Part shown: positions 29,601 through 56,799 of the stretch, one piece after another
Layout: each line of letters starts with the position of its first letter
Numbering within the stretch: the stretch's first letter is position 1
From: Psilocybe cubensis
Lineage: Eukaryota
DNA: 64,000 bases
NCBI GenBank assembly: GCA_017499595.2
Contig: CM039009.1
Span: 992,001 to 1,056,000, forward strand
Reading direction: 5' to 3'
The notes under the pieces: model-generated
Seen by the model: the letters and a program-made list of their open reading frames with translations, nothing else
Databases searched by the model: none
What the model was told of the DNA's origin: nothing
Program-made: the position numbers and the translations under genes

Positions 29601-30658
29601 AAGCATGACGGTTGTTTGGGGCGTGGTGCGGAGTGGAGCGCAATACACCGTACGATGCGATGCGGCATCGTTGTAACACAACAACGACAACAAGGAGAAT
29701 GAGGATGAGAGCGGGGGGTGGCAGGGATGAAGAAGAGTGTAGATGGGAAATAGGGGAAAGAAAAAAAGAGGAAACATAAGCAGAAAGAAAGAAAAACATG
29801 GCAGAAAGGGGAAGCAGGAAGAAGGGGGGCATAAGCACGAAAACCAAACAAAGATCTATAAAGTATAAGTATACCAAAATACTATACGGAGTTTGAGTTT
29901 GCTAATACAGCCTTCGATCTATATTGGAGAGAAGGAAAAGGAGGAGGAGGAGGGAAAAAATATAGAGATGGCATAGTGATGATAAGACAAACAAAGAGAA
30001 AAAAAACAACATAGAGCCGAAACAGAGAGATAAACACGAAAAGGAACACAGAAAAGAGGCAAGACAAAAAAAACCGAAACAACAAAGAAAAAAAAAAAAC
30101 ACAAGAGCGGTGTATCGACCTCGTCAAAAAAGCAAGGCCGGATCTAATTTTTTTTGCAGTGGACAATGAGATGGCAAATGGTGTCGAGTGAGGATGAGGA
30201 TGATGCGCCGACGATCAACATCGGACGGACTGTCTAACAAATGCCGGTGATAACGATGACGATGACGATGATGGATGGAAAAAAAAATCTAAACATGGCC
30301 CATTCCGCTACCTGGCGAGTAACGTCGGAAGGTCGTGGGTGGTGGTGGTGGTGGTGCTAGTTGGCAAGACGAAAGACGAAATGATGGGTAATGCTAGACA
30401 TGGTGATGGTCGGGCGAGAATGAGGGCGAACTGTACAACAACAACAACAATAAACGCTGTCGTCACAACCCAACCGCCGTTCTAATTTTTTTTTTGTTTG
30501 CCTATAAATATAAAGTAGAGAAGCTATACATCAGCGCCCGCTGCAAGCCAAACCCAAAACAAAAACAAGAACGTTGGGTCTTAAGAGAGAGCAGCTCAAC
30601 TCACCTGCCATTCAACACCTCCATGCCCCAAGTCAAACACCTCTACACACTCTACACC

Positions 30659-33600
30659 TCACCGTCCCATACCCTGATGCCCATGCCCATACGTATAATA
30701 CTCCATCCCACCTGCACCCGCATTAGAGCCAGCACCACCACCTAGCTGATAATACTGCTGCTGCTGGCCATCTCCTGCACTCTGGTTCGCACTTCCATTC
30801 ACAGGCGAAGAGCCGCCACTCGAATTGGCGTTGGCATTAGCGTTGGCGTCCTCAGCAGAAGGCGAAGACGGAGACGATGCACCACCAGTCGCCACAGACG
30901 TGGCACCAGCACCAGCACCGGAGGAGGAGGAGGCAGAGGCAGAGGCGGAGCTAAGCCCCAACCCAAGACTCAAACTGTTCATCGCAAACGTATCCCTCCC
31001 TTGTCCCTGTCCCTGTGCCTGCGCATCACCCCGAGGCGACGAAGACCCCGCGCGGCGCAACGGCGACATCGCCATCGCCTCCGTCCCAGTCCCAGTCCCC
31101 GACATACCCATAGGCATACCCATACCCATGCCCATTGGCATAGACATACCCATACCCATAGGCGTAGATAGAGGAAGAGGAAGAGGAGCGGGGCCCATGT
31201 CCATGTCGAGCTCCATTTCCATGTCTTGTACCTGCTGTTGCTGGGCTTGTTGTTGCTGTTGCTGAGCCTGTTGTTGGGCTTGTTGCTGTTGCTGGGCTTG
31301 CTGCTGTTGCTGCTGATGGGCCTGCGCCTGAGCTTGCGCATACTGCCGCTGGTACTGCTGCGCATAATGCGTATACGCCGCATACTGCTGCTGCTGCTGT
31401 TGTTGTTGTTGTTGCTGCTGGGTAGGAGACGCCTGAGCCTGCTGATGCGGAGACCCAGCACCCGACCCGGAGCCAGAGCCAGCTGCGCTGCCCCCGCTCG
31501 AGTGCCGCGAGTGTCCAGGCGACGCTGTCGTCGAGTTCGCCGTCGTATTGGCAGCGGAAGAAGAGTTGGCACTAGCATTGGCAGAAGCCGCAGACGCGTT
31601 CGCGGCGCTCGAGCCAGTGGTGGGTACCACGAACGGCTGCGCATGCACCGTCGGCGCTGTCGTCGGCGTAATCGCCGTCGTCTTCAACTGCCCTTGTCCT
31701 TGTCCTTGTCCTTGCTGCTGCTGCTGTTGCTGCTGCTGTTGCGTGGAAGTACTATTCGACGCATTCCCCGACCCCGCATTCACATTCGAACTAGAATACA
31801 TCCCCAAACCCAACCCAAGCCCGAGCCCAAGACCCACATGCCCATGCCCATGGCCAAACGCCGTAGAGGTAGTAGCACCCGACGCAGGCTGCACAGGCTG
31901 CGGCGTGCCCACGCGGCTGCTCGCAACACTCACACTCCCCGCCCTGCTCACCGGCACACTCGCGCTTCCACCCGCAGCAGCAGCACGCATCATCGCTGCG
32001 CTGATCCCGCTCATGCCCCCTACACCACCCGCACCCCCCCCTCCGAGCGCCGCACCGCTCGAGTTCGTTCTAACCACGCCCCCGTGCGCACTCTGCCCGT
32101 GCCCGTGCCCATGCAGGTGCTGATGCTGATGCTGATTCCCATGCCCATGCCCATGGCCCCTCTTCCCCACTCCCAAACACTCATGCTGTCCACTCGCCAG
32201 CAACGCAAGTCCAACCGCACCATGATCCCCACTATGCTGATAATGATACCTCAACCCGTTCATATTCTTATACCGCCGCTGACACTCGCCTACACCGCAC
32301 GCGAACGGGCGCAGGCGGCGCTCGGCCTCGCGCTCGACCTCGCGCAGCTCAGCGTCGGGGATCGCGGAGAGATCGGAGTATGTGAGCGAGAGAATGGATG
32401 TGGGCGAGAGCGGGGTGGTGGGTGTAGAGGGTGTAGTGGCGGATGAGGATGCGATGGGGACCGGTGCTGTTCCCGTCGCTGTCGCTGTAGTCGATGAGGA
32501 CGAGGACGTAGACGCAACAGGCGCACTGCCCAACGACGCACTGCGCGTCAACCCACTCTGCTGCTGCTGCTGCTGCCCCTGCTGCTGTGGCTGCCCACCA
32601 ACAGTAACACCCTGCCCCTCGCGCTCCCTCCTCTTCCTCTCCAACAAATCCTTCACATGCTCCAAATCCTTCGGCGGCGCAAAATTACAGCTCCCATGCG
32701 TCATATGATACTTGAGCCCGTTCGCCTGCTTATAGCTCTTATTACAATTCGGCTTCGGGCATCTGAATGGTTTGCTCAGGAGCAACGACGGGCCGGACGC
32801 CGCGCGCGCAGACGACGGCGTCGTCGCACCGCCGTTCGCGGCGGAGGCGGACGGGTTCGCAGAGGACGGCGAGGGCACGGCGGACGCGGGTGTAGACGCG
32901 GACGCACCGCCCAGCGCGGTGTTCAGCGTCAGCCCGAGCCCAAGCCCAGAGGACGCAGCGGCGGCAGAGCGCGCGGCCGTCGGCGTCGGCGGGGCAGTCG
33001 CACTTGCACCGGCACCGAGACCAGCCGCGTGCTGCTGGTGTTGTTGATGCTTCGCCGCATTTTGCTGGTGTTTGCGCTGGTGGTGCTGTGGGTGCGCGTG
33101 TTGCTCTGACGGGCTGGTGCCGCTTTCGCCCGGCACGCTCGTCGTGCTCGCGAAGAGCAGCGCGGGGGGAACACATCCTGTGCCCTCGCCAACGCCCATA
33201 CCCATCCCCGCGCCCATCCTCGCATCCCACGTACCACCCGCACCGCCATCCGCACCACCCGCGCCCGCACCCCCATACCCGCTCGGGGGACTCACAACCA
33301 CACTCGCCTCATCCACTGTCGCACCATTAAACTGCGCGCCCGGCAAACAGCTCGAATAATCCGACGCGAAGCGCGCGTACGGGTTGAACGCCTCTTCCGG
33401 ATGCGCGAGGTACGTGTTATGCGCGCCTGCGCCGTGCGTGCTCGGTGCGCGCAGGAACGCGTTAGCGTGAGCGAGGTTCAGGTTGAGGTTTGGACGGTGC
33501 TGCGTCTGCGATTGATTCTGAGTCTGCTGTTGTTGTGTTTGCTGTTGCTGCTGGCTCTGGTGCGTAGGCGAATTGTGCCGGGTCGAGGACGAACCGCCTT

Positions 33601-34778
33601 CATATGAAGGGGACGACGGCGCGGTGATATACGGCGACGCATTTCCTCCATTTCCACTTGCAAACTGCTGCTGCAACCCCCCAGGCAACCCGCCTGCTGC
33701 GAAAGGATGCGGCGACGGGTACGCGGAGAGCGGCGTCGATATAGGCGTGTCCGGGGGCGTCGTCGCACATGACGACGGGGACGAGCGGGAGGAAAGGGAC
33801 GACGCGGATGTAGGCGGCGGAGGAGGAGGAGCATCGAGCTCGATGTCGAGGTCCATGTCATCCGGCTCAAAGGAGGCGTGCGCATAATGACTCTGCGGCT
33901 GGTGCATCTGCTGTTGCTGGAACTGTTGTTGCTGTTGTTGTTGCTGCTGGAATTGTTGCTGTTGCTGCTGTTGTTGGTGCTGTTGGACGGGGGAGGAGTC
34001 GTGCACAGTGGGGTTGAATGGGATTTGGATGTGCGCGTGGGGCTGCGCGGAGGTTGGGTCGAGCACGACGATGTGCACGTCCTCAAAGTGCTCCAGCAGC
34101 GCGTGCAGGTCCGTCAGATGCTGCCCGCAGCAAGTGTAGTTTCGGCACTAATACAAGTGGCATATATTAGTCAGACACTCAAAGTGGAGGAGATGGAGGA
34201 GGAGGAAAAAAGCAACGCACCAGCTCGCCCTCGCGCTCAAACACATTCAGCGCGTTCATAATGCTATCGCTCTCTGGCGTCTTGCCGCTTCTAAAATTAT
34301 TCAAACTATTCCCATCCCGTCAACAAAAAAACTTTGCAAAAAAGACACCAAAATAAAAAAACCCAAACACTTACTCGATACTGCTCAACAACTGGGCCGT
34401 GGGCGATCCAACGGGGAACCTATTCCCACTCGACCAGGAGCCAACACCACCGGCACCGTTTCCCGCTCCAAGACTACCGAATGCCATGCCACTCCCGCCA
34501 AGACTGCCAACGCCCATGCCCATACCGAAGGAGCCCGCGCGCCAGGAGATGGGGGAGCCAAGGAAGTGGCGGGTGAAGGAGGCGGGGTTGAAGGTGCCCG
34601 AGTCGGAGCCCGCGCCGTCGTCCTGCATCATCGCGTAGTCGTGCAGGCCGCTGCTGCTACTGCTTCCGCCTGCCTGCGTTGGCGGGTGGTTGCTCTGCTG
34701 GGTGTATTGCGAAGAGTGGTGGTGGTGGTGGTGTGGGTGCTGCTGTGGCAGCGCGATAGGCTGTGAGTGCGCTATCAT
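30659..34778 (-). CDS. SFP1: Sfp1-like split C2H2 zinc-finger transcription factor with very large low-complexity expansions (exons about 34778-34375, 34290-34222, 34147-30659)
   Basis: N-terminal FLGSPISWR; EREGEL/CRNYTCCGQHLTDLHALLEHFEDVH; split fingers KPFRCPKPNCNKSYKQANGLKYHMTHGSC and RPFACGVGECQRRYKNMNGLRYHYQHS. Confidence 0.9.
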
Positions 34779-36823
34779 GTTTAAGTTGTGTTGGTGGGTG
34801 TTGGAAGTGTGTAGAGTAGATGGATATAGTGTACTGGGGTCGGTTGTGGGGTTGTGTGGTTGTCAAGTACAAATGTATGCGTTGCCTGACCGACTCGAAA
34901 TCGAAGTCGAATAATGCAATCCAATCCCCAAGGGAGAGAAAAAAAAGAGGCAAGATGGGGTCTAGACAGAGGAAGAGTCGTATATGTATGGACAATTAGA
35001 TAGAGCAAAAAAGCGAAAAAGCAAGGCAAAGTGGAGGAGGGAGAAGGAGTAAAGAGTCGAAGTAGATGTATGTAAGAGGAGAGAAGGGATCAGATTGGCG
35101 TGTGCATCAAGATGCGAGGCCCAAGGGGTCTCTCTTCTTATCCGCCTCCTGCGACTTCTGCCACCCCTTCCGAAATAACCAAACCCAGTCAACTCACTCC
35201 GACCCAAGCCTACGGCCGTCCTCCCGATCCCAAGCGAGGCACCGCCACTATCTTGAACCGGTCTGGTTCACTTCTCACTCTCGGACTCGGAGGTCCATAG
35301 ACCCCCGGGACTCCCTCCCCCGGTCTGTCTGAGTAAGACGCCAGAGGCCACGCCCACCGACGCTATACCCCGACGCGAACACGCACATCGGGTCTTGCGC
35401 CAACCGTGCGGCGTGCGGCGTGCGCGGTGGATGGATATGACTGCGCCGCGACATCGTTCTTGCAAGCTAAACATCTTCCTCCCGCTCCAGCTTAATTCTT
35501 CAACCACTTTCCCCCGGGTGTGCCGGCGCCTTTGTGTTCACCTTTTCCTTCTCCTTCAATCTGCATTCAGCTTCGCCTTCATCCTGGATTCAACTTCGAC
35601 TTCGTTCCTCGTCGCATCCGCTGGCTGTCGGGCAGGGGATTCATAATAACCGTATACATATTCATACCCATTCCCCGAACTTGTGTGTGTAGTATCTTAA
35701 AGTTCTTTCCGAGCAGCTGTTAATTTCGATTATGTCGGCGTATTCAAACTTGCATTTCCTTTCCTTTCCCGATTTTCATTGCATCTCATTTCCCACCCTC
35801 CTCGAGTCTCGACACATCTTCCACCTCCCCGTCCGACTCCGAATGCAACTCCAACTCGGTGCGCACCGCACGGACGCGACATTCAACACTGCGCTTTCCC
35901 ATTCATTCTCTTCTCTTCTATTCCATTCTATTTCATTTCATCTCATCTAATATAAAGCACCCAAACAAAACCTAATGGTATGGTATGTTATGTTATGTTA
36001 TATCAAAGTTAATGTATTAGAATGCATCGTGCAGTGGATATAGTGGATACCGTTACCGTCGCGACTCCATATCCATACCCTCCATAACCATATCTTCCAT
36101 ATCGTATCCACGACTATACCATTCCCATTCCCATCGACGCCGCTCGAATCGAATCCACGGACGATATTATTAACCTGCCCAGTGCGTACGTGCGTCTCTC
36201 TTAAATCACATAGCAGTCTTTCGCATTTCTTGGCATTTATGATTTAAACCTACAAGTTGCAGCTTACAACTTAATCATATTATAATCCATCCAACTCCTT
36301 CCTTCTCGTAATTGATACATCGCACATTATGTAGAGTCGTAGACAGCATCACAACCTCGGAAATCATTTACTACATCCATTACATATACACCAATTACCT
36401 CAACCACAAATTCACAAATCACAATCAACATCCTAACAAAATAAGCGTTCCCATCCCCCTCCCTTTCCCCATTTCCTTCCTCTTCCATCAGCCCTTCCAT
36501 CAGCCCTACCCTGCTAGGCCCTGTTCTGCCCCAAGGGGCCAAGCGTCTAAACTATACCTAAATGCTTATAGTAGTCTTCATTCAACACGAGACGCCTATC
36601 GAAATACTATTAAAAATACATTAAATTTATAGTATATACATAATCGATGCTCCGATCCCTTGTTCTCGGATTCGTGGGTTTGTGGCTGTTCATGATCAAG
36701 TGCGTGGGGTGTAGCTGTATTCGCGGGGTTGTGTGATTGTACATTTGAACATTTGAAAATATGAAGTAATGAGCGGTTGAGCAGTTGAGAGGATATGAAG
36801 TTGAACATACGCCATGTGGTGAT

Positions 36824-37726
36824 AGGACCCCCGGTAATGAGGGAGGAGCCCAGATCCCTATCCGGACAAATTTTGGGCAATTTTGAGCATAAGGCAAGGT
36901 ACCATCCGGACAAAAAAGCGACAAAACATGTCAAAAGGTAGGGTACAAAAAATTGTTCTGGTCCAGACAAATTTCAAGATTTTGGAGGTATGCTAGAGCT
37001 GTTGTCCAGACAAATTTGGTCGAATGATTGTCAGCCTTGTGGTGTAGTAGTTGGTGGTGCCAGTGAATTTTTAGTGACCTCTCTTAATTATGATGCCCGT
37101 TTGAATCCTAGTGTGGTTGATTTTTGAGTTCGTTTTTTTACATTTTGTGGCTAGTATTTCATATTCTTGTAACGTAGGATCAATGCGGTGTTGTTCTAAT
37201 CCCATCGATTCAATTTCTTTCTACTATCAAGTCAAGCGCATTCGTGCCACTAGAGCCAGCCCCAACTTCGATTGAATTGTCGCCCGCAGATTTTGGACAC
37301 TTCAAATCATTGCGAGAGGGACTCGGGTCAATTGTTAGGGTTCTCGAGTCTCGAGAAATACAACAAGCGTTCGCCAGCTGTATGATACTTTCATCTTTAC
37401 GAAAATGTATTATATGTTACGTTACAGTACATTTCTTTTATTTAAATTGTATACATATGTTGTCAATGCGATTTAAGCCTCCTAGAGGGGCAAAAAAGTA
37501 AGCCGGGGGGCGAAAAATTAGGCCAGGAGACGAAAAAGCAGGCCAGGGGACGCCATCCGGACAAAAATTGACCAGAAATAGGCAGGGTACCAAAAATTTT
37601 GGTTGTCCGGACCAAAACCGAAATTTTTTTCGAGGCCAGGTGCAATCCGGACAAAAATTCACAAAATCTGTCCGGACAAATTCTCGGTCTTGGGATCAAG
37701 CCTTTTCTGTCATTACCGGGGGTCCT
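36824..37726. mobile_element. Non-autonomous TIR DNA transposon (MITE-like, 903 bp, 8-bp TSD)
   Basis: Perfect 17-bp TIR AGGACCCCCGGTAATGA (36824-36840) / TCATTACCGGGGGTCCT (37710-37726); direct repeat GTGGTGAT at 36816-36823 and 37727-37734; eight TCC(G/A)GAC(A/C)AA subterminal motifs; no transposase ORF. Confidence 0.93.
37031..37125 (+). other. Degenerate tRNA-like / Pol III promoter-like sequence inside the MITE
   Basis: A-box-like TGGTGTAGTAGTTGG, B-box-like GTTTGAATCC (37099-37108), ends TCAGCC/GGTTGA can pair, followed by TTTTT. T-stem and anticodon arm do not fold properly. Confidence 0.35.
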
Positions 37727-40377
37727 GTGGTGATGTTCACATCCTTTCTCGAATCTCAGGCTCGAGGTCCGAGGAGGTCCACATCACAAGTCAAGTCAGG
37801 GTCTGATACTTACGAACTTATGAACTTGGAACTTGCGAACTCGTAAATCGGGTTGTGGGGAAAGACGAAGGAAAACATATAGTACACCTTTAATTGCTCT
37901 AAGTATCAAACGCAGATGTAAATTCAAATGTAAATGTAAACGAAAAGATAACGATTGGCGCTTCCGAGTCTCAATTATAATTTACACAAGTACTAGTTGA
38001 ACATCGGCCCATGAAGGCGCAGATGTAGATGCAGATCATGATGCAGGCGCAGGTGCAGGGTAGCCTCCCAAGCTCGCAAAGGCAGCCAAGACTCCACCGT
38101 CCACTGTCCAACGCCAGCGCCTGTGCCTCGCCTCGTGGTGGTTCAAACGAAAAAGGAAATAAAAAAATGAGAGGCTACTGTGAAGAAAAGAATAAACCCA
38201 TTGTCTTCCATCAACCTTTGCCGTAGCCGAACCTGAACCTGAGCGCTGAGCCCAGCCACAAGCCATGTCGTCTCTCCATCATCAATTCGTTAGATCTCGA
38301 CGTCAACGTTGACTTGGCTCGAGCCCTCGAGCCTCGTACGGTTTAATCGACTTGTCCGGAACAGAAACGCCTTTGTTGTTGTTACACTCTTTCTCGTCTA
38401 ATTTTTTTAAAAAAATTGAAGACATTGTCTTCCCGCTTATCTGTCTACACGTACCATTGTCTTCAACGTTCACGGACTTTAAACTAGCTTACTACACAAT
38501 ACAATGCTCAGTGCACAATGAACAGTGCACAGTGCACACACACGTCGCATCGCACGATGCCAGTGCGTACCGTTGAATCGGATATCCGACCGCCATTCAC
38601 CAGAAGTCAGTCGCCTGTAGCCACACCGGATCCAGCGATAGCGATAGCAAGCATGCTAACAACCAACGAACTGGAAACTGGAAACTGGAAACCGGAACTG
38701 GAACTGAACCTCTGGCAACTTTGAACTCCTCTCCATCTTGCGACTTGAACGCGCCTATTAGAATTAGAATTAGTATTAGAATTAGTAACCCGGCATAACA
38801 AACCAACCTCTCACAATCACAATCAGAATCAGAATCGACCATTAACCACTATGCATTGTGCATTAACCATTGTGTGTTCCATTCATTATCCATCGACCAT
38901 CGACCATTGACCGGTAACCGGTGACCATTGACCATTGAAGACTTACAAGGCTTACAAGACTTTTCAAGTCAAAGTCCCCTCGCTTAAACCAATACCCCGC
39001 ACACCTGACTCTGACTCTGACCCTGATCATTTGTCAGCGTGTGTCATATCGTATAACGGTCCGAGAACCGACTTCCGTCTGCCGAGTGCCGATGGTGCCG
39101 AATGCGTGTGCTGAGAGAGCAGAGAGCTGTGTTCCGTGTGCCGTGTGCCGAGTCTCACACCCCCAATCACCGCTCACGTGCCTACCCGCCGAGGTGGGTC
39201 GAGGTGGCTGTGAGGACGAGGAATGGATGAAGGAAAGCAAGACGCGGGTTGGACTGAAGCTTGAGCTTGAGCTTGAACCTTTAAACTTTGAATATTTGAA
39301 TGGCTGAAGACGCGCGAGGTTGAGTTGTGAAGGTAGAGGAAAGTTGAATCTTGGATGGATGGATGGTTTGGGTTGGAGAGGCAAGCTTTGAATTGGGTGA
39401 GCGCGTGGATGGAATGTTGGGGTGGAGATACTGTAACGCGATGACGGCCGGTAATACGATCAGATGAGGTACGTGATACACGCACCTAATCCTTTCTTTC
39501 GTTAATCTTACCTCCAACTTCAAGTATTCAGTGCAGTGCTCGCAAAGACAGATTAGATTATAGATAGCGGATTCAGAATTTCAGATCCTGCAATGCGCAT
39601 ATCATCGTCATGCTGTACCAGCACCAGTACCACCTTGCGCCTTGGCTCGCTCTATCCTCCTCCTCCTTCGCCTTACACTCTCCACAAACGCTCTAATCCA
39701 GTCGACAGGACAATCGCTAAGAATAGGCAAACACACGCCTATCAAATCATCCCGCGTTCCGTTTTTTTTTTCCTTCATCAAAGTAATTTTGGAATTTTAC
39801 GAGTCGGGACGGGGGTCGTGTGAGGCATTTCGTGATATCTGACACTATAGTGATAGTGATATCAGTCGGTGTACGTACGTGAGGTGAAGTGGAAGTTTAT
39901 TCGCGTTCGCCGTTCGGCCGAGCGGACAAAGACAAGGAACGGCAAGGCAAGGCAAAGGGAGAGGGAGGAAAGAAGTCTCTCACTCCGCATCGTGCGCTTC
40001 GCCTCGTTTTTTTGGTTTTTGTGTTTGTTTCTCCACTGCCGGCGATTGGTACTGCGACTGCGATTGCGACTGCGATTGCAAGGAAGACTTGGACGCGGAG
40101 TGTGCTTTAGTCTTCTGCATCTCGTAGCTGTGAGTTGAATTGTCAAAGTCTTGTGCCCAGCTGAATAGAAAGATAGATACTCCAGAAGTTGTGCTTCTCT
40201 CCTTGCAGTCCTAGGCTTGTCCTCTCTCTCTCTTTCTCGGAGTGAAGAAACATCTTCAAGTTAGCGCTCACCTGATTCAAAGGAATCCATCGCGCTCCCT
40301 CCTCAACCCAGTTATCTTATCTCCATACCCACCCACCCACCCCCGCACTCACCCACTCAGACCAACGCACCAAACCA

Positions 40378-43300: not shown

Positions 43301-44681
43301 CATACTACAAACTCTGACTCTGGCCACGGACATCTACACAACACGGACACGGACACATACACCTACACAACACAACACCTACACCTACACCTACACCTAC
43401 ACCTACACCTACACCTACATCTACACCTACACAACACAACACGGACACGACACCGACACCGAAACCGAAACCGACATGAACATGAACACACGAACACACG
43501 AAAAACAGACACGACGATCCGCGCAATTGGCAAACGCGCCCATCCGTTACATTCCATGACGTTCTTCTCGGCGCTGTGTGTGGTTATTTCTGGGACTGCG
43601 TGAGTCGTTTTGTTTTTTTCTTGTTTCTTTGGTTTCTTCTTCTTCTTCTTCGGTTTCTTTCGTGCTTTTGTATTTTTTCGTTGAGGCTTTTGGCTTTCCT
43701 CATCCACACTCATCATCATCATCATCTTCTTCTCCTTCTCGTGTTTCTCGTGTTATATTTGCTATTTCTATTTCTATTAACCCACTTTCCAAAGTCAACA
43801 CTCAACACTCAACCATTCCAATTTCCACGCGATGATCATACAACATTACACATTACACATTTTACTTAATACTAATCTATCAATCGACAGGATGATAGTG
43901 AACGAAACGCCCGTCGTAATTCCTACAAAGCTGGAGTGGGTGTTGTTGTTGGTGATGATTGGGATATTCGGGTTTGTAGCTCAGGTTCGTGTTCTTTGTC
44001 TTAAGAAAATAATAAACATATTAAAAGAAAAATAAAAAAAACAACTATAGACCCTCCTAACAATGGGCCTCCAGCGCGAAACGGCAGGCAGAGGTGCGAT
44101 GGCGGTGTACACTCAGATTGTATTCGCATCTATCCTTGAAAGGATATTCTTTGCTGGGGAACATAGTGGTGATAGTAGTGGCGAAAGGGCGATGTCGGTG
44201 CTTGGGACGGGGATGATATGTGGTGCGGGGGGGTGGGTTGTTGTGAGTATTGTGTTTCTTTTTTTTGTTTCTTTGTTTCCTTTGTTTCTTTGTTTCCTTT
44301 GTTTCCTTTGTTTCTTTGTGCTTTTATTGGTTTTATGGGTGTTAATTTTTTTTCTTGTGGGGGTAGATTATGAAGCAGAGGGAGAAGAAGAAAGTTGGGT
44401 CTGCTGCTGGGCCTGGGCCTGGGCCTGGGGCGGGTGGGTCTGGGTCTGGGGCTGTTGTTGGGGAAAGTGAGAGGGATGAGGGGTATGAGCTTGAGCTTGA
44501 GGAGGGGTTGTTGGGCGCTGTGGATCGAGGTGTTGGTAGGGAAAGGGAAAGAGAAAGGGATGCGGATGCGGATGCGGATGAGGTGGATAATGAGGATGAG
44601 GATGAGGATGAGGATGAGGATGAGGATGAGGATGAAAAAGGTGGTTTTAGGAAGGAGGGGGAGGGGGAGGGGCGGGTGTAG
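40378..44681 (+). CDS. EamA / drug-metabolite transporter (DMT) family membrane protein, about 12 exons, expanded introns
   Basis: Spliced peptides NTGLLLVTGAQVFLSLMNVAVK / LVAVRM / PFLGPKGVRLLLVTRGAVG/FFGLFGVYYSLQYLSLSDATVLTFLAP..LLGE / ISLLGVVLIARP / YTTIRAIGKRAHPLHS / IGIFGFVAQ/TLLTMGLQRETAGRG..YTQIVFA. Confidence 0.92.
42225..42430 (+). repeat. Intronic minisatellite, unit approximately A(5-7)CAACGCTCAC, about 10 degenerate copies
   Basis: Directly visible in EamA intron 42127-42432, running up to the AAAG acceptor. Confidence 0.9.
43360..43432 (+). repeat. (ACACCT)n hexamer microsatellite in EamA intron
   Basis: Direct reading of the sequence. Confidence 0.9.
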
Positions 44682-45143
44682 ATGTGAAGTTGAATGCTCG
44701 TATACATATTGGATTGGATTGGATGTTGGATGTTGGATATTGGATATTGGATATTGGAGGGATGCGTTTTGTTGTTGTGTTTGTTGTCGCTGGTGTGTTT
44801 GTATATGTGTGTGTATGTGTTAGATATCGGATATAGGATATAGGATATGTGCTTTGCTTTGCTTTGCTTTGCGTTGGTTTGGTTTTGGTTTTGGTTTAGG
44901 TTTTTTTTTGAAGGTGAAGGTAGTGCAATAACTCTAGCACCCATGTCCCCTGTCCCTGTCCCTCGTTTACGGAAACGGGAGTTCTCACCATAGCACCATC
45001 CACCATCCACCATCCACCATATACCATACGCCATACGCCATAGCACCGTATACAGAAGAATCATCGATCATCGATCATCAATCATCGATCATCTCCTCAT
45101 CTCCTGGCTTTGAAATGAAATTCTTGAGCCTATCTATTGATAA

Positions 45144-45313
45144 TTGGAATTTTGGAACATTGGAACATTGGAACATTGGAATTTTGGAATTTTGGAACAT
45201 TGGAACATTGGAACATTGGAATTTTGGAACATTGGAATTTTGGAATTTTGGAATTTTGGAACTTGGAACTTGGAATTTTGGAATTTTGGAATTTTGGAAC
45301 TTGGAACTTGGAA
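45144..45313. repeat. 8-bp tandem array TTGGAACA/TTGGAATT (about 20 copies, some 7-bp TTGGAAC variants)
   Basis: Direct reading; intergenic between EamA and ATG22. Confidence 0.95.
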
Positions 45314-46952
45314 AGATTCAAGATTCAAGATTCGTGCATACATTGACATGGCTCGACCCCAACTCTCACTCTCAAATCCTCCCCTCCGAGTCCTTTGCAA
45401 AATCGCAATGGACGATGTTGGATGGATGGTTGTGCTCGTGCCACTTGTGCTTGTGCTGTGATGGCTTGGAGACGTTATCCATGGTCCATGTTCCTCAATT
45501 CGTTTCCTTTTGAATTGCCAGTTTCCGACAGTTGTCGTTCACCGTGACCCAGGATGGTAGTAATGGCAATGGTAATGGTAATGTCACCCCGGCTGTTAAA
45601 AATCACCTAGAGCTTTTGTTGGAAGGGTGGAAGGGAAGGAACTTGAAGACTTGTGTATTGTGTGCTTTGGATCTTGGATCTTGGATCTTGGATCTGATAG
45701 ATGAGGATGAGGATGAGGATGAGGATGAGGATGAGGATGAGGATGAGGATGAGATTGAAAGCAGATAGATGTCCGAAGGTGTCCATACTAACTACTAACT
45801 ACTAACTGCATGGGAGGGTAAAGGATATCGATAAAAGGTAACCGGTAAAGAATAACGAACTCCCCTCTACCCCCCTCCCTTCAGGCTTCCATGCAGGCGA
45901 ACTTGAAAGTGGCTTGAGTGACTTAGTATGTGCTTTACCTGACCTTGATATTGGCTTCCATTGGCACCTGTACACCGCACAGCACTCACTACTGGCACTT
46001 GACTTTTTTGCTCGACATGTAGTCTTGCCGTCGCTGTGCTTGCCGTGGACGTAGACGCGGAGAAACAAAGACAAAGACACACGGAGAGGGGAAGAAATGA
46101 CGGTTTACACTCTCACTGGCAGGTTCTACGGCATAACCGTCTATTATGATTCATGGATTCATGATTCGGACTCGTGGGGGTTTTTTGTTTATATATATAT
46201 ATATATATATTGATGATGGAGAAAGGGGGTTTTAGTTTAATGGTTAAACATGCCTCTCCGCCGCAGAGATTCAGAGTGTCAAGAAGCAGCACTACCGTAC
46301 CGTACTTGCCTCAGTTGCGGCGTACATTTACTAATAGATGCACTTGGGCTGAGTGAAATTCAAGTTGAGTTGACTAGGTTGAGGTTGATGTTGATGTTGA
46401 TGTTGATGTTGATGTTCTCAGACTTCAAGTTACCGATGTCTCTACTGCCATGGCAGAGTCCGACTCGGACTCAAAAACCTGGATGATAAATAACTATAAA
46501 AATAATAATATACAAAAAGGTTCCCTTTATCCTGAGCCAGTGAGATATAGCTGGCAGAATTTCTGCACGATATCATCAGAGTACTCTACCTTCAAAGACT
46601 GTAAGGGACTCGGAGTTGAGAGCCCCATCGGACTCGGAGCCTGAAAGACTCCTGAGACGCGTAACGCGTTGGTAGCTAGGCACGTGATGGGTACGGGGTG
46701 CTATCTTTGGAAATGGAAGTCACGCAGACTCTGACTTGACTCTGCTTGTGGCTTGTGCTTCTGCTTCTGCTGCTGTCAGATTGACGACGTCGACGCTTCT
46801 AACAATCCAACCCACCGACGAATCGACCGTCCCACCGACTGACGACGAAATCTGACGTTGACACCGCACGGCTCATCATATGGAGCAGTGATACTTTACT
46901 TTACCTTACCTCTCTATCAAATTATCTCTCTGCAAGTTGACAATAGAGAAAT

Positions 46953-49900
46953 ATGGTTTCTGAATCATATACCCGTCTCAGCGACGTGGATGAAAGCACA
47001 AGCGCAAGCGCGGACGGGGTACATGCGTACCCGCGCGGATACAGTGTTGCGCGGTATAAGAGGAAGCTTAGAGGGTGGTTGTGTTATGCATTTGCTAGGT
47101 GCGCTTTACTGAATAATGAATAATGAATATTACTAACGAACAACTCACTCACAACTCACTCACAACAAAAACAAAACAACAAAACAACACAACCCCAGCG
47201 AAGTGTTCGTCATCGTCTCCCTCACCCTCTTCCTCCCTATATGCCTCGAGCAGTTCGCGCGCGACAATGGGTTTTTGCTCCCTGACAAGACCGTGCCGTG
47301 TTCGTCTATCGGTGTCTCTCCTTCTCCTATATCCCAAAACGGTACCGCGCTTGTCAATGTGGACGAGAACGCGCGGTGTGTAGTGAAAATTGGGTGGATG
47401 TGGATCGACACTGCGAGTTTTAGGTGCGTGTATTTCTTCCCTGCATGGGGGGGAGTTGCTGAAGTATGTGTTGTGGTGGGTGTAGTTTGTACGTGTACTC
47501 GATATCAGTTGCGCTCCAGGCGCTCACTGTCATCTCTATGGGCGGTATCGCGGACCACCGTACGTCCCTCTCTCTCTCTCTCTTGCTCTTCCACTCACTA
47601 ACTCGCCTTCCCTCCTTCCCTCCCTCTCCACCCACTCACCCACTCACCCCCTGCCCGCCTGCCCGCCTGCCCGCCCACCACAGCCCCCCACCGCCTGCGC
47701 CTCCTCCTAACCTTCGCCCTCCTCGGCGCCCTCTCCGCCACCCTCTTCCTCCTCCTCCCCTCCTCCTCCCCGATATGGCCCCTCGCCGCCCCGCTGGCGA
47801 TGGCCGCGAACGTGGGCTTCGGCGCGTCGACTGTTGCGATGAATGCGTATATACCTTCGTTGGCAAGGGAGGCGCCGGAGGTGGTGAGGGTGCGTGAGGA
47901 GGTGAGGCGGGAGGCTGCGCGTGCGGCTGCCGAGGGTGCTGGGGGAGCGGAAGATGATGGAGAAGATGCGGATCCTGATTTGAGTTTGAGTGTGGACTCC
48001 AACCCACGCGCACCACTCCTCTCCCCTTCCCCCTCCTCCCCCTCGACCCCCTCCTCAACCACCCCCCTCCAAAAACACTACACATCCCTCCTCTCCCGCA
48101 CAACCTCGCGCATATCCTCACACGGCATTGCAATAGGGTACGCAGCGGGCATTGCGCTGTTGCTTGTTGCGCTTGTGCCGGTGACCCTGATGAGTGGGAG
48201 TGCGGGGGGGAAGACGCTGGCGCTGAGGGTGGCGGTTGGGATGAGTGGGATTTGGTGGGGTGTTGGGACGGTGGTTGCGGGGGGGCTTTTGGGGGGTGGG
48301 GAGGTTGTGCAGCGTGTGCAGGTGCGGGGTGTTGGTGTGGAAAATGGGGAGGAGGAAGAGGTGGGAGATGGGGATGGAGATGGAGATGGAGATGAACACC
48401 TGAGAAGCAACACCAGCAACTTGAAAGCGGAGGAGGAAGACAAGAAGAACTGGAGCATACCCCGCGAAATCGCGGCCTCGTGGATCCGGCTTGCGGACAT
48501 GCTCCGCTGGAGCGAGATGAAGAAGTTGAGGAATACGTTTCGCTTTTTGGCGGCGTGGTTTTTGCTTTCGGATGGTATGTCTTTTTGTGTCTTTTGTTTT
48601 TGGGTTTTTTGGGGTGGTTGCTGATGTTCTCTTTTTTTTTTTTTTTCTGCTTTACTCTCCTCCTCTGCTGCTCCCTCAACCCACCAAAACCCAACAAAAA
48701 AAGCATTCACAACACTAACATCAACCGCCCTCCTATTCGCCAAAACCTCCCTGCACCTCCCCTCCGCATCTCTAATCCTGATCGGAATCCTAACGCCCCT
48801 CTCAGGGATCCTCGGCGCGCTGATTTGGCCCGTGGTGCAGAGGTCGAGGGGGTGGAGTAATTTGCGGGTTGTGTGTGTGCTTGTGGGTGCGGTGGGCGGG
48901 GTGTGTTTGTATGGGTGTTTGGGGCTTTTTGTTGGGGGTGGTGCGGGGGGTGGGGTGGGTGGGGGAGAGGGTGGGGCAGGGGGAGGGTGGAGGTTTGGAA
49001 GTTTGACGACGCAGTGGGAGATGTTTGTCCTTGCTATTTATTTCGGTGCGTTGTTTTCTTGATTTTTTTTTTTTTTTTGCTTTCTTTCTTTCTTTCTCTT
49101 TTGCTTTTTTTCGCTTTTTTCGGCTTTTTTGCACCTAGTTTGTGTTTGTCTGCCCCGCCTTTGGGTATGGGTATGTGTATGTGAAGACGCGTCGCGTCGC
49201 ACGGTCGCGTCGTAGTGGTTCTATTTTTATCCATACCCCCTATTTCACCCCTATTTCACCCCTATTTCACATCTTTGCTTTCTGCTTTCTGAATTGACCC
49301 GCAAATTGCAATCGCTAATCATCATTCTCTATACATAAACTCCCACCACCCGCCCACCAATCACCACTACGCACTACGCACTACCCACACCCACACACAC
49401 ACAAAACCCACACACACACAAAACCCACACACACACACACGCCTAACATATATATATATATATATGTACACAACAGGCTCAGTCTACGGCGCATTCCAAG
49501 GCTACGCGCGCGCGCTCTACGCGGAGCTGCTCCCGCCTGGTGAAGAGGCGCGCTGGTACGGGTTGTTTTCTATTACCGATAAAGTACGTCTTTTCGTTTT
49601 CGTCATTTTTTTTTAAAGAGAATAAAAATGTTTGCTTACGCGTTGATTCTCTTCTCATTCGCGTATCGCATCGCATTTCTTCCTCTCTTCCTCTCTTCCT
49701 CTCTTCCTCTCTTCCTCTCTTCCTCTCTTCCTCTCTTCCTCTCTTCCTCCCACACCACCCACCCACCCAACCCCCCACCCAAAACCCCAAAAACAGTCCT
49801 CCTCATTCATAGGCCCCCTCCTCGTCGGCCTCATCGCAGACATGACCGGCAACATCCGCTATGCGTTTCTCTTTTTGGGAGGGATGGTGCTTTTGGCGAT

Positions 49901-50039
49901 GCCGGTGCTTGCGGGGGTGGATGTTGAGTGGGGGGGGAGGGAGGCGAGGGGGTATGTGGAGGGGAGGGGGGTAGGAGAGAGTGTGGAGGGGGGAGGGGGG
50001 AGGGGAGAGGTTTTAGATGGGGGTTTTAGAAGGAATTAG
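46953..50039 (+). CDS. ATG22: Autophagy-related protein 22-like MFS vacuolar amino-acid efflux transporter (7 exons)
   Basis: MVSESYTRL..LRGWLCYAFAS/EVFVIVSLTLFLPICLEQFARDNG; RCVVKIGWMWIDTASFSLYVYSISVALQALTVISMGGIADH; ANVGFGASTVAMNAYIPSL; SRISSHGIAIGYAAG; FRFLAAWFLLSD/AFTT; YARALYAELLPPGEEARWYGLFSITDK/SSSFIGP; TGNIRYAFLFL. Confidence 0.95.
49676..49748 (+). repeat. (CTTCCTCT)n 8-bp microsatellite in last ATG22 intron
   Basis: About 9 copies read directly. Confidence 0.9.
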
Positions 50040-52799
50040 AGAGAGGGTTGAGGGGTAGGAGGGAGGGATGATTTTGTTTATTGTGTATTGTTTTTGGTTT
50101 TGCTTTGCTTTGATTGGAATTTGTTTTCGCTTTCGATATTCGCTCTTCGGGTTCAATTTCGGTTTTGGACCTCGATGATCGAACATTGATGAGCTTTGAG
50201 CTTTGAGCATTGAGTATAGAGCATTCTCTTGTCGAGAGAGAGAGAGAGAAAATGTGTGTGTGTGCCGTTAAATGAAGGAAAAGGAAATGGGAAAGTAATA
50301 GAGGTTGAGTTGGATTTTTACAGTTATACCATAGGAACAGATTACACTTACGTGAAAACGTGAAACGTGAAACTGAACCATGAGTTTCGCGTTATCGGGA
50401 TCATCTCAACCCAGAAACCAGAAACTCGTAGTTCGTAGTTCGTAGTTCGTAGTTCGTAGTTCGAGAAGTTACATCTCTGAAGCAGTTTACAAACCCAAGC
50501 CCAAGCTCAAGTGCAAGTGCAAACCACGAGTCCATCCACCAACTTACTTAGTACTTAGCACTCACTACCAACGACCAAAAACCAACGACCAAAAAACCGA
50601 CGACCAAAAACCAACGTCCCGACGAAACGGACAACGACCAACCCGACAATTCAATTTAAGTTGACAACATCCAACAGCCTACAAGTTAAACCAGTATAGC
50701 AGTATAGCAGTATCAGTATAGCAGTGTACCGGATGGGCTGATGGTTGATGTTTATAACATTGAAGACCGGGTGGGTGGGTGTAACGGGGTTGGGGTAGTT
50801 GGTTAGGCTTGGTTGGTTGGTTGGTGATACGGTATGGCATGGTAGGACAGATTTTCAGTGGTGAGAGTTGGGATGTTCGGTGTTGATATTGTTGCCTAGA
50901 CTCGATTCAACTCGACTCGACTCGACTTGGTACCTAGTACTATACGCGCCGCCGCGGCGTCACATCTGAATTCCGCTAGCTTAGCTTTTTCAAGTGTCAG
51001 TGTTTCATTGACAATGACAACGCGCGCGAAAATGAGACGAAAAAAAGAAAGAAAAAAAGTCGAAATTTGGAAAGTGGATGTTAAATGAGGAAAAAAAGAA
51101 AGAAATCGGAAAAAAGAGAAGAAAGAGAAAAAAGAGAAAATATTTAATCACACCCAAGCGCGAAATTCGAATATACTACTTAGAAATCGCAAATCCCCGC
51201 CCGCCCGCCCGCCCTTTTGATCATCCACTACGACATGCGACGACATGCGACGCACGAACATCGCATCGATGTTCGGTGTGGAGTTATACCAGTAGATAAT
51301 AAGCACACTCCAGCACATTGAGTCTGGGTATGGGCAGATATCCGGAGCCAGCGCTGCAGCCTGCAGCACCCTCCGAATCCATCTATCACGGATAATCGAT
51401 AGATAACACACTGCTCTCTTGCCTCTGAATCCGAGAGCTCGAGAGCTACCACACCAAAACCAACTCCAAACTCCCATAACCCAACGACCAACCAACCCAT
51501 TCGAAGAAGTACAATATTCAACAGCAAACAGCCGACAAACACGGCGAGCAGTGTATCGCTGGTCGCTGGGTTTTGGGGTTTGATTGGGCGGAAGGCCGGT
51601 GTGCTGGTGGTGGATGATTTTCTATGGGCTGGTGGTGGATGTTTTCTATGGGTTGGTTGGTTGGTGGTAGGTGTTTAGTGGTGTTCAAGAGGTTGGTTTT
51701 AGGGGCTGCGAGTGAGTCGCGACATTCGCTTGGTATTCGTGGTTGGATGAAGAGGTGTCTGCTCATGATCAGTGTTCGAATGTAGATCATCCCATGACGC
51801 ATAAAATAAAAGAAGCGAAATGAAATCGATACTAAAAAATGGAAAAAAAAGAAAAGGAAAGAAAGAAAAAACCAACAAAAAAGGGAGAATACTCAATTAG
51901 AATTTAGATACGAGCGCGAATCTCAAATCCCCGCGCGAACGTGTAGTGCATGTACGACGCAACGGCAGCTGCTGCGTCAGGGGCTAGAGTCCAGAGACAA
52001 GTATGAACCAGAAAGTGTCATGGTCGGTGTCGATGCCCGTGTCGGGGAACTCGATCCATTTACTCGGTCTTGTACTTGTCCGGAACATTGCGGCAGTTGA
52101 CCTCGTAGTGCATCAGTAACACTAACAGTTCAACGCGTATCTGTAGACTATATCCGCTGATTCTGCTAGCGGCATGCGGTATTTTGGGGCTAGCAGAAAC
52201 GAGCGCTTGGGCAAGCGCTAGTACGATTGTTGTTATCATGATAGATTGTTGCGCTGAGGGTTAGCGTTTAGAGTTGAGTGGATAGTGGTAAATTCGGGGA
52301 GGTCGGGATGTTGGCCATGGCCAGGGTCGCCAGGTGAGGCAATTGCGTGAGGTGAATGGGATTACGCGCGTTTGGAGGTGCCGGGACATGGTGGAATGGG
52401 ATGAGATGGGATGGTTGTACAGCGCGATCGTGGTGTCCTCGAGAGAGCAAGCTTGGGCGTTTGCCGCGTTATTGGAATGCGACTTGAATTTGGTTATAGC
52501 TTTCGCAAGTGCGGTTGCTCCATCTGCTCGAGGAGGGGTATGGGCGCTTCTTCTACGGATATCCACTTGCGACGAGGTATGTCACCGTGTCAGGGCTTCA
52601 TCGCCTGTTATATTAAGTACTTAGTGTCTTGACAGAAGGTGCTTGGCAGCGTTGATGGTATCGATATGGTACTTGGGTATCGCACACAGCTAATCTGCTC
52701 AGCTGGAGGATTAGTTCCCTAGCTTTTAAAAAGATCAAATGATATTCCATACCCAGCCTGCATAACATCAGAAGGAACCAAGATTTCCGGTGTAACCTG

Positions 52800-53700
52800 G
52801 GTATATGCGTAAACTAGGCCACGGTGATTTGAGTCACAATGTCTTTCGAGGGCAGAAAGACTCCAATTGTCGCTTCACGGTCACCAAAGAGTGACTCTGC
52901 ACGAATGTCAAATTTAGCGTAAAGAGTGACCTGCGGTCATCGAGACCGTCGCTCTGTATTGTGCGGGTCGCACTAGAATAGCCGGATAAGCATCGTCTTG
53001 GAATCCAAAAGATATCGTCTAGAGCGCTGTTTCGAGGGAACGGGTACGGCACAAAGGAATGGGAATCGCGGTGAACTCGCTGGGGCTGGGTTTGAACTCA
53101 TCGTGACTCCGATTGGGAGCGCGCCCGCGTTTGGATTTTTTTTCTTTTGAAAAGCCTCTGTTGCAACCATCACTTGAATAACTGTCTTATCGCTTCTCAT
53201 GAACGACTTTCGTCGATTTTACCTCCGTACCAAGCTGTGATACAGAAGAAACCCGTCCGACTTACTCGGTATCCCGCGCCTATTTGAATTCAATGCAATC
53301 TACAGAAGGTATTTCGGTTTTGATCATGGTTTTTGTGTGTGAATTGTGCTTTTTTTGATTGAAAAAGTTCAAGCAGGGAAGACGGGATGCCAAGTTCAAA
53401 TCCTTAAGTTTCGAGGGTGACTTCTTCATGAAGCCGAATTTCGCAGGAGATCCTGTGTTCATCGAGGCCATAATTCTGTTATTCAATTGCACAAAGCCGA
53501 ACAGATATCGATCCGTCAAAACTCTAAAATCATCGTCAGGAGGGCAGTCTATTTTCGTGTAAAAGGTACGAGGGGAATGTTTTGGTATGTAGGTGTTCCT
53601 GCGTAACTTAACCGAACCCTTTACCGGTCGGTACAGTTTTCTCGTCGTTCACGGGCTTGCGAAGCATACCTGCGCGCATGGTCGAGGCCTCTCCGAGACG
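52800..53700 (-). pseudogene. Possible decayed hypothetical gene
   Basis: Overlapping minus-strand ORF fragments (52834-53052, 52973-53200, 53280-53519) with protein-like composition. No family recognised. Confidence 0.2.
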
Positions 53701-54539
53701 GTAGACGAATATTCCGTGTTTTCGCCAGTCTACTGGGTTTAAATTTCAACTCTGTCGACTTTTGTGACGCCGGGTCCCCGACTGGGGCGCGCCTTTCCCC
53801 CGAACCTATATCGTCACTGGTACCTAAACACGTAAGTTTGATGGTCCGGTGGGCACTCCCACCAACTCAGCTGCTGTCCTCAGAATTCACTCGCACTTAA
53901 ATAAAGTTTGATCTCTCCTGTAATCCTGTAAATTCGATCATATCTTTAACCGAACCGAAGAGCACTAGCACCCTCAGTCGACATCGAAAATCCCCCTAGA
54001 AAACTCTACAGAACCGAGGTTTTTGACGTGTCCGGGCAGCAGGATACGTCGCTATACAGTCGGAGACCTGCAGTATGTGGAACCAGTCTGTAATCCACAC
54101 CCCTCCGACCTTTCTCTAGCAAGAACCCTACTGACAGTGACGTATGACATAGGTTGACATGGTGTTGGTCGACCACTTATCCCTGCACAGATGAAATGGA
54201 CAGAAATATGACACTGGTTGCTTTCCGGAACACCCACAAACCAACGGCCATCACAAGATGTACATCGAAATAAATTATAATTTGCGGGTCCCTCAATTCT
54301 TAAGCGTATGTACATAAGTCACTAGTTGCGTTCTCGTTATGCTGAAGGATTACGTTTACGGTTTCTGTTTCATTTAACTGTGTACACGACACTGGCTAGA
54401 TAGTGTTTATAATACGGGCGACAAGGGCGCTGTTAGGTTGCTGCATTTATTCCCTCCAAACCAACTGGTCGCTTTCGTTCCGCATGCTCTAGACTAGAGT
54501 TTCCCTGTCCCCTCTTTTTATGCAGGTTTTTGGAGGCTG

Positions 54540-56239: not shown

Positions 56240-56799
56240 TTCCGAGTCTTGAAGCAACCGACTGCCATTCTCCACCAGCTTGTATGTTCAACACAATTGT
56301 TTCGAACGAACGATATTTGAATGGGTGTGTTTTCTCTTTGCTAGTTTATACATGGTACCTTCTACTGATGATGTCTTTCAGGACCAACGAAACATCCTTT
56401 TCAAATGACAAATTGGTATATCTCATGACTCTCGCTGCCAGGGTCATTCGGCGGGTCTCTTCGACCCCGCTGTGTATCATCTCTTGCCATGAAGACCTCT
56501 AACCTCTTCTGCCAGACAAAGAGAGACGGAAATTTATTTTCACTTGCGCTAAGGCATCACCACTACTGCTTATAGCGGCCTTTGAGTAGTTCAATCAAGT
56601 GCTTAAACCTTCCGAGTACATTTTTGTACATTTATCTTCATTTTACGACCTTTTCAGTCGCTTTGTTCCATACAAACACAACTTTCTTTAACATTTTCTC
56701 ATATACATTTGGTAGTAATTCATTAAGGGCAGGATAGGTTAGGATTCAGCCGTTTGACATTAAAAATTAAAATGAAGATTGCGTTGGACGACATCACTG

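Follow-up and report, generated by a model that had tools for sequence, protein, structure and literature searches.

An island of 24.6 kb in the nuclear DNA of the mushroom Psilocybe cubensis was found to be an aperiodic mosaic of strongly G- or C-skewed blocks, laid over a native and conserved block of three genes that encode an SFP1-like C2H2 transcription factor, an EamA-family transporter and the vacuolar effluxer ATG22. The DNA analysed (the window) was a stretch of 64,000 nt (GCA_017499595.2, CM039009.1: 992,001-1,056,000, forward strand); positions are counted from its first base and the features are collected in Table 1. We tentatively favour, at somewhat less than even confidence, a combined explanation in which introns and protein loops expanded by slippage were filtered against the dinucleotide AG, together with an extreme, splicing-linked sorting of G and C in exons. 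A preliminary description of this DNA had reported an oscillation between A/C-rich and G/T-rich blocks; its observation was partly confirmed and its interpretation partly supported.

Windows of 100 nt with an absolute GC skew above 0.6 were concentrated at 28-52 kb (66/480, versus 3/799 elsewhere). The window holds 45 stretches of at least 40 nt with a smoothed absolute GC skew above 0.6: 41 lie inside 28,685-52,300 and each flank contains two. Against the 41 island stretches, first-order Markov resampling gave 1.4±1.2, and shuffling of chunks gave 7.1±1.9 (500 nt) and 17.1±3.1 (200 nt). The variance of G minus C in 100-nt windows was 413 in the island versus 88±4.6 in shuffled sequence (4.7x), and 75 versus 53 and 73 versus 45 in the flanks (1.4-1.6x). 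The reported block structure thus far exceeds shuffled controls and is confined to the island, which begins at ~27.8-28.7 kb, about 2 kb further left than the 30.5 kb given earlier. Two other features are concentrated in the same interval: G-quadruplex (G4) motifs (26 in the island, or 10.6 per 10 kb, versus 2 in 39.4 kb of flanks) and tandem repeats, of which 71 of the 72 rows returned by Tandem Repeats Finder fall inside the island.

Sorting of the two bases comes close to saturation, with G or C down to 1-9% across up to 179 nt, and 36% of the ATG22 gene (0.363) lies in strongly skewed blocks. The eight ATG22 blocks listed in the preliminary description all have the sign claimed for them, with GC skews of -0.65 to -0.84 in C blocks and +0.54 to +0.87 in G blocks (Table 1). 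The C block that reaches from intron 3 into exon 4 uses C-ending codons for a conserved transmembrane segment, and in the longer G block of that exon the codons end in G or T. An opposition of A/C to G/T had also been claimed, and it holds mainly at codon third positions and within genes: blocks in the three genes are of the keto/amino type (r +0.15 to +0.34). It does not hold as a rule for the whole island, where the coupling of G-C to T-A is weak (r 0.13-0.18) and where, in two of the four intergenic parts, the blocks are of the purine type (GA; r -0.13, -0.16).

Synonymous codons were said to follow the blocks, and the signal persists at silent sites; the observation thus withstands the refutations proposed in the preliminary description. 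When synonymous codons were swapped among equal amino acids (synonymous shuffle), the third-position keto/amino variance of ATG22 in 15-codon windows was 84.7, versus 17.6±2.8 in the shuffles (z 24, 0/1000). The same test gave z 13 for the SFP1-like open reading frame (ORF), z 7.2 for EamA exon 1 and z -1.2 to 1.6 for six flank ORFs. Fourfold-degenerate sites of ATG22 mirror the blocks (C blocks: C 61, A 18, T 8, G 7; G blocks: G 92, T 38, A 20, C 9), and its twofold codons obey the same rule. The skew of codon positions 1+2 was correlated with that of position 3 in ATG22 (r 0.73) and EamA (0.56), with values of 0.21 in the SFP1-like gene and -0.11 to 0.37 in flank ORFs. The conserved transmembrane segments of ATG22 align without gaps to P. 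cyanescens and their codons are nonetheless sorted, which argues that the sorting arose by silent-site substitution and not by insertion. Extension of runs by copying of the next base was considered and rejected: third positions show none beyond block composition (z 0.66).

The blocks follow no period. Autocorrelation of the G/C and keto/amino signals was positive to ~120 nt, reached zero at 140 nt and had a faint negative lobe at 200-280 nt; the coherence length of the skew was ~130 nt, the spectrum was red, and neither a second autocorrelation peak nor a spectral peak at 150-200 nt was seen in the island. Sign switches along the block order (18/40) matched a random order (19.5±3.0). What had been called an oscillating or alternating skew is therefore aperiodic.

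The sign of the skew does change at a fixed phase to splice sites, on which exons, introns and the aggregate profile agree. GC skew was lower in the 5' half than in the 3' half in 13/13 exons of at least 90 nt (12/13 at third positions, 11/13 at fourfold sites), and keto skew was higher in the 5' half in 12/13 introns of at least 90 nt. In the mean profile, exon starts lean towards C and exon ends contain G at 0.38 and C at 0.15; intron 5' halves contain T at 0.53-0.61, and 3' halves G at 0.08-0.13, C at 0.31-0.38 and A at 0.24-0.36, so that the blocks straddle splice sites. The C-to-G switches inside exons and T-to-A switches inside introns were borne out, the intron switch being from T to A/C. 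The companion statement, that the skew overrides exon and intron identity, is the reverse of this phase lock. Finally, the argument that the skew does not track transcription direction carries no information: because a C-then-G unit looks alike from either strand, the minus-strand SFP1-like gene is uninformative on direction.

Intron content is asymmetric in a second respect. The 16 introns modelled in ATG22 and EamA, all of them GT..AG in gene models whose two frames are open, contain 30 AG dinucleotides versus 98 expected from base frequencies (GA, 93), a depletion of about threefold. The complement CT is undepleted (284 versus 301 expected), so that only the transcript strand is affected, and AG in intergenic DNA is not depleted in this way. 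Up to 372 nt ahead of the 3' splice site are free of AG, and the AG-free runs of 11/16 introns (83-372 nt) were significant versus shuffles (P ≤ 0.018). Motif matching alone places the final CTNAY-like motif at 15-191 nt from the 3' splice site and finds no such motif in five introns. The depletion suggests that premature 3' splice signals are removed by purifying selection. Sequences restricted to G/T or to A/C are free of AG, and sequences restricted to A/G are not; such selection would explain why blocks inside introns are written in G/T and A/C.

Short-motif repetition is widespread in the island and spares the ATG22 exons. Relative to a local shuffle, repeated 6-mers were found at 2.98x in the island (z 38), 3.7x in ATG22 introns, 4.4x in the SFP1-like ORF, 6.3x in EamA exon 1 and 1.3x in the flanks; the ATG22 exons have no such excess (1.19, z 0.9), though their third positions are sorted. 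The introns of ATG22 measure 62-431 nt here; in 11 environmental relatives, 21/22 gaps between matched exons were 28-76 nt, and the EamA protein has 703 aa versus 430 aa in its P. cyanescens orthologue.

Several repeats and low-complexity tracts were recorded individually. The first EamA exon (40,378-41,331) encodes (HD)n, (AN)n, (ST)n and (NS)n runs and the last (44,367-44,681) a (DE)n tail, and low complexity makes up much of both. Minisatellites are present at 45,144-45,313, between EamA and ATG22 (8-nt TTGGAATT-type unit, ~20 copies), and at 42,226-42,424, in EamA intron 4 (17-nt A/C-rich unit, ~11 copies). At 36,816-37,745 there is a ~900-nt element resembling a non-autonomous transposon of the miniature inverted-repeat (MITE) type, with terminal inverted repeats, internal 'CCGGACAAA' repeats and no Pfam match; its arms (36,824-36,872 and 37,678-37,726) show 73% complementarity, with a close match of the outermost bases by eye. 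A mobile-element or duplication origin of the island as a whole was rejected, as no long repeats link its borders, and so was repeat-induced point mutation (RIP), with TpA/ApT of 0.62-0.83 and (CpA+TpG)/(ApC+GpT) of 1.04-1.32 throughout the window.

Sorting of G and C weakens local RNA folding by ~20%. The mean minimum free energy (MFE) of ATG22 in 80-nt windows was -16.5 kcal/mol, versus -20.75±0.44 in synonymous shuffles (z +9.8); over 40-80 nt, folding was weaker than in synonymous shuffles for ATG22 (z +6.5, +9.8) and for EamA (+4.0, +5.3), and two flank ORFs folded about as their shuffles did (z +0.8, -0.5). Nine island segments gave z -2.95 to +2.4 when compared with shuffles that kept composition in 25-nt bins, and had little advantage in folding over global shuffles. 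The arms at the two ends of an intron paired better than whole-intron shuffles in 2/13 long introns, with a mean z of -0.45, and of +0.69 versus within-arm shuffles. These two are ATG22 introns 4 and 5 (z -4.8, -3.1); the ATG22 arms 48591-48615 and 48679-48703 are 80% complementary. ATG22 introns 1 and 3 hardly fold (MFE 0.0, -1.8). Inverted pairs numbered 92 in the island versus 24 in an equal-sized flank, an excess that is due to composition.

Relatives of ATG22 were collected with an alignment-based scan of metagenome contigs, which gave 80 loci; a scan with a single-exon query had yielded none. Their G-C variance ratio did not exceed 7.3 (median near 1.8), versus 21.1 for ATG22 in the window, and their share in strong blocks was at most 0.118, versus 0.363. 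For the exon-4 homologue (64 loci), the synonymous-shuffle z had a median of 0.8, with the outliers L009 (7.6) and L002 (7.4), versus 13.4 in the window, and the correlation of positions 1+2 with position 3 was positive in 51/64 loci (median 0.22, versus 0.75 here). The relatives show a third-position C-to-G gradient in weak form (exon 4, 49/58 loci; exon 5, 15/16; exon 7, 18/20; but not exon 2, 7/12), and the synonymous-shuffle z, a measure of block strength, rises among them with GC content at third positions (GC3; Spearman 0.42). L002 and L001 are equally near to the window (both 0.71 identical in conserved segments), yet L001 is without sorting; as L002 is no closer than this unsorted relative, strong sorting appears sporadically. 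The long intron of L002 is not free of AG (AG 21, GA 24), and the intron filter is thus not common to it.

Two side observations concern these comparisons. L009 (1-1,979), which has the second-strongest silent-site sorting after the window, matches ATG22 residues 16-605 with a single 37-nt gap and may for that reason be a spliced transcript and not genomic DNA. Records labelled as the same organism fall into classes when compared over 40,301-50,300 (shares of sampled words of 0.93-0.98, 0.61 and 0.29-0.35); as a lead only, these may reflect divergent haplotypes or populations.

The explanation tentatively favoured above would work as follows. Slippage-type expansion, probably the source of the repeats, would swell introns, flanking non-coding DNA and tolerant protein loops with simple repeats, each array being one-sided in composition. 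In introns only AG-free material would survive, T/G-rich after the 5' splice site and A/C-rich and G-poor before the 3' splice site. In exons, G and C would be sorted into separate runs of ~40-180 nt, also at fourfold sites in conserved transmembrane segments, with third positions following the skew that the amino-acid sequence imposes on positions 1+2; such sorting may be an extreme form of the weak C-to-G gradient of most ATG22 orthologues. Selection at the level of the transcript would then keep a GC-rich pre-mRNA locally open and the surroundings of splice sites distinct. For the sorting in exons, transcript-level selection is slightly favoured over strand-specific mutation bias, given that the sorting keeps phase with gene structure, recurs weakly in most orthologues, goes with GC3 and affects folding; one sequence cannot separate the two.

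A number of points weigh against this explanation. Long exons (ATG22 exon 4, the SFP1-like ORF, EamA exon 1) hold internal blocks far from splice sites, EamA exon 1 has no 5'-to-3' gradient, and skewed blocks also occur in DNA without a gene model, though mostly as tandem repeats. The G-versus-C third-position signal of the SFP1-like gene is far weaker than that of ATG22 (z 5.1 versus 18.7, synonymous-shuffle null) and its third positions track positions 1+2 weakly (r 0.21). Avoidance of cryptic introns inside exons was not seen in counts of GTRNGT-to-YAG pairs (16 versus 13.1±9.0, and 3 versus 6.3±6.1). The AG-free runs follow in part from the order of the blocks, so that cause and effect are inseparable in one sequence, and the 16 introns stand as gene models. 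Some of the metagenome loci are duplicates of each other, and counts over relatives are not fully independent. Selection on silent sites would need to be strong and limited to these genes, genes 22 kb away showing nothing, and a mutational regime particular to the region would account equally well for repeats and sorting that share the same bounds.

A strand-asymmetric substitution process, as proposed in the preliminary description, is possible. The main rival of the favoured explanation, a self-reinforcing strand-specific mutation process, is rather unlikely. The G-rich strand, exposed as single-stranded DNA in an R-loop or G-quadruplex, would lose C and A and drift to G/T, a mirror process would make the C/A blocks, and weak skews set by amino-acid sequence and splice signals would be amplified into two-state domains; lesion-bypass chemistry would lie behind such a process. 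It accords with the mirror symmetry of fourfold composition (G.58, T.24, A.13, C.06 versus C.65, A.19, T.09, G.07), with third positions that track positions 1+2, with a coherence of ~130 nt without motif repeats in ATG22 exons, and with the density of G4 motifs in the island. The effect is bounded by a region and co-occurs with repeat instability; such a process explains the sharing of one interval better than selection does, and it does the same for the internal blocks of long exons; the sporadic recurrence in L002 and L009 does not track relatedness. It would, however, need antisense transcription or replication-linked exposure for the C blocks of plus-strand genes, the sign flips within one transcription unit unlike known R-loop GC-skew domains, and the coding-strand-specific AG depletion of introns is left unexplained. 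That a self-amplifying, strand-specific sorting was switched on in this bounded chromosomal region, and sporadically in other mushroom lineages (L002, L009), bringing silent sites near saturation, is for its part unlikely.

Pure replication slippage ('cryptic simplicity'), with repeat-adjacent sequence drifting towards the motif and no selection on RNA, is quite improbable. The confinement of tandem repeats to the island, the 6-mer excess and the blocks that straddle borders between intron repeats and exons are as expected from it. The ATG22 exons are not: they lack a 6-mer excess, their third positions do not copy the next base beyond block composition, their transmembrane segments are sorted in gap-free alignment to P. 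cyanescens, and exon 4 comes close to silent sorting without a simple repeat within several hundred bases. Nor would slippage deplete AG and not CT in introns.

An asymmetry arising at recombination hotspots has little to commend it. Double-strand breaks in introns and intergenic DNA would expose opposite strands by resection and leave G/T to the left and A/C to the right; switches from G/T to A/C are indeed located in introns and between genes, as this geometry predicts, and GC3 is higher in island genes (56-68%) than in flank ORFs (36-60%). Island intergenic GC (0.42-0.52) nevertheless equals that of the flanks, which argues against regional GC-biased conversion, and blocks of 40-180 nt are far below the length of resection tracts.

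Strand-polar damage or repair phased by nucleosomes, as suggested in the preliminary description, is very improbable: the C-then-G unit has the two-fold symmetry expected of a nucleosome-centred process, but the lack of a 150-200 nt period or second autocorrelation maximum and the random block order give no support to phasing, and the cycles of ATG22 exon 4 measure ~310-430 nt. Selection for serial fold-back hairpins, or for GT/AC duplexes that bridge introns, which was the other suggestion, is no more credible. It can draw on the arm pairing of ATG22 introns 4 and 5 and on the 92 versus 24 inverted pairs; against it, 11/13 long introns are without pairing, introns 1 and 3 hardly fold, the nine segments fold no better than local shuffles, and local folding of coding sequence is lowered, not raised. 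Foreign or artefactual DNA (horizontal transfer, chimeric assembly or sequencing artefact) is hardly credible in spite of the sharp change of texture at both borders, given a gene order shared with other Agaricomycetes, intact frames and canonical introns, several assemblies that contain 93-98% of the sampled words, a flank gene whose nearest protein clusters are also basidiomycete, and no long repeats at the borders.

The window was assigned to the nuclear DNA of an Agaricales mushroom from the best named relatives of the ATG22, SFP1-like and EamA proteins, found in Psilocybe cyanescens, Cyclocybe aegerita, Gymnopilus, Hebeloma and Panaeolus. The ATG22 and EamA models were built by tblastn with the P. 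cyanescens orthologues (P0002 and P0145, respectively, the latter of 430 aa) and by reading of splice sites, and give open frames; the modelled introns measure 100, 62, 124, 129, 431 and 213 nt in ATG22 and 66-436 nt in EamA. The two short upstream introns of the SFP1-like gene (~72 and ~82 nt) and its start codon were read from the sequence against orthologues. Its coding sequence has 62-65% GC and is rich in Q, GH, GL and GM repeats; its relatives are 73-76% identical over residues 470-690, and two bear the source name 'transcription factor SFP1'. By locus-tag numbering, neighbours among the three genes are also close together in P. cyanescens, Pleurotus cornucopiae, Hohenbuehelia grisea and a Termitomyces species (CVT25_011536/011537, CCMSSC00406_0003007/3008, HGRIS_010824/826, H2248_001988/992). 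As this order is common to other species, the block is native and old, not foreign.

Table 1. Positions of the island, its three genes and the skewed blocks of ATG22 within the window.
Feature	Position	Strand	Remarks
Island rich in simple repeats and G- or C-skewed blocks	27801..52400	.	borders approximate; 24.6 kb
SFP1-like C2H2 transcription factor gene	30659..34778	-	ORF and translation; long 3' exon (ORF 30,659-34,147)
EamA-family transporter gene	40378..44681	+	11 exons, 703 aa (model); Pfam EamA match near 42.4 kb
EamA exons	40378-41331, 41691-41708, 41814-41845, 42049-42126, 42433-42584, 42802-42949, 43035-43072, 43509-43599, 43891-43984, 44051-44242, 44367-44681	+	
ATG22 (vacuolar effluxer) gene	46953..50039	+	7 exons, 675 aa (model); Pfam PF11700 on four ORF pieces (47.1-50.0 kb)
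ATG22 exons	46953-47098, 47199-47423, 47486-47559, 47684-48574, 48704-49045, 49477-49583, 49797-50039	+	
C block, intron 3 and exon 4 start	47560..47800	+	C 0.58, G 0.12, GC skew -0.67
G block, within exon 4	47840..47995	+	G 0.47, C 0.14, GC skew +0.54
C block, within exon 4	48000..48120	+	C 0.59, G 0.05, GC skew -0.84
G block, exon 4	48150..48400	+	G 0.52, C 0.11, GC skew +0.66; conserved transmembrane segments and Gly/Asp/Glu loop
C/A block, intron 4 3' half and exon 5 start	48660..48810	+	C 0.44, A 0.28, G 0.09, GC skew -0.65
G/T block, exon 5 end	48840..49020	+	G 0.57, T 0.27, C 0.06, GC skew +0.81
C block, intron 6 3' end and exon 7 start	49730..49860	+	C 0.51, G 0.09, GC skew -0.70
G block, exon 7 end and 3' flank start	49870..50070	+	G 0.57, C 0.04, GC skew +0.87

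Outside the island, the region 0-6,000 is of ordinary composition and, from Pfam matches, likely contains accessory genes for an OCD/mu-crystallin-like protein, an alpha/beta hydrolase (BD-FAE), for which the nearest protein clusters are basidiomycete, and an M36 fungalysin with FTP propeptide. The flanks at 6,600-27,800 and 52,400-64,000 are gene-poor for Agaricales: 164 ORFs of 70 aa or more yielded just a DPBB gene (~10.6-11.0 kb) and a gene for a C2H2 zinc-finger protein (~17.7-19.2 kb), there was no recognisable Pfam domain at 52-64 kb, and the two flanks were without transposon domains or RIP signature and almost without simple repeats. Among 287 scanned ORFs neither mating-type genes nor transposon domains were found, the only clear matches being DPBB, C2H2 and EamA, and a search for known RNA families found none.

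The silent sites of conserved membrane-protein genes have here been rewritten near saturation, C/A then G/T, with genes 22 kb away untouched, and the island is in this sense a natural experiment on silent sites and intron content, in which selection at the RNA level is set against a local mutation regime. If mutation is the true cause, the island would represent a region-limited mutational regime of a kind for which no description was found; if selection is, codon choice in a fungus is here under an exceptionally strong constraint linked to splicing or structure. Keyword searches of open-access text turned up no report on fungi in which silent sites are sorted for G and C near saturation and within a limited region. 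Material to decide is at hand, in that several sequenced strains carry the stretch and two environmental relatives show a milder form.

Cryptic simplicity, the slippage-generated simple sequence reportedly described by Tautz, Trick and Dover in 1986, resembles the island in its scrambled short-motif repeats in non-coding DNA and tolerant coding loops, and differs in that the sorted silent sites of ATG22 are not motif repeats. The (AC)m-(GT)n structured introns of zebrafish (Lin et al. 2016, PMC4691745), as they appear in the part of that report considered here, likewise have GT-type sequence at one intron end and AC-type at the other; in the present introns, which belong to a fungus, a bridging duplex is predicted in 2/13 long introns and the sequence is mostly not made of dimer repeats. 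The domains of GC skew and R-loop formation at promoters (Ginno et al. 2012, as cited in a passage of PMC10030826) share a strong G-over-C skew on one strand and G4 motifs. A domain of that kind would keep a single sign, oriented with transcription, along a transcription unit, whereas the eight ATG22 blocks strictly alternate in sign within one such unit; the island's sign flips many times in such a unit and is not tied to the gene start.

Selection against spurious 3' splice signals is known (PMC10946897, in the section concerned), as are AG-dinucleotide exclusion zones (Gooding et al. 2006, PMC1431707, in the portion used here). The introns of the island resemble such zones in their long AG-free runs before the 3' splice site and in the depletion of AG but not of its complement. 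They differ in that nearly whole introns, up to 372 nt, are involved and are built from simple repeats. For exon and intron skews together, the closest counterpart in outline is splicing-coupled strand asymmetry, with opposite skews in exons and introns of human and mouse (Touchon et al. 2004 and Zhang et al. 2008, as cited in PMC10030826); according to the same passage, which does not extend to other fungi, these trends reportedly fail in yeast. Common to both are a skew tied to splice sites, opposite trends in exons and introns and a reading on the transcript strand. The flank ORFs, which are without gene models, give no block signal, and the ATG22 relatives show the weak form in exons 4, 5 and 7 and not in exon 2. 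In contrast to the asymmetry described in that passage, the sorting in P. cubensis is near-saturating, reaches fourfold sites at least 100 nt into exons, forms internal blocks and is held within one block of 24.6 kb.

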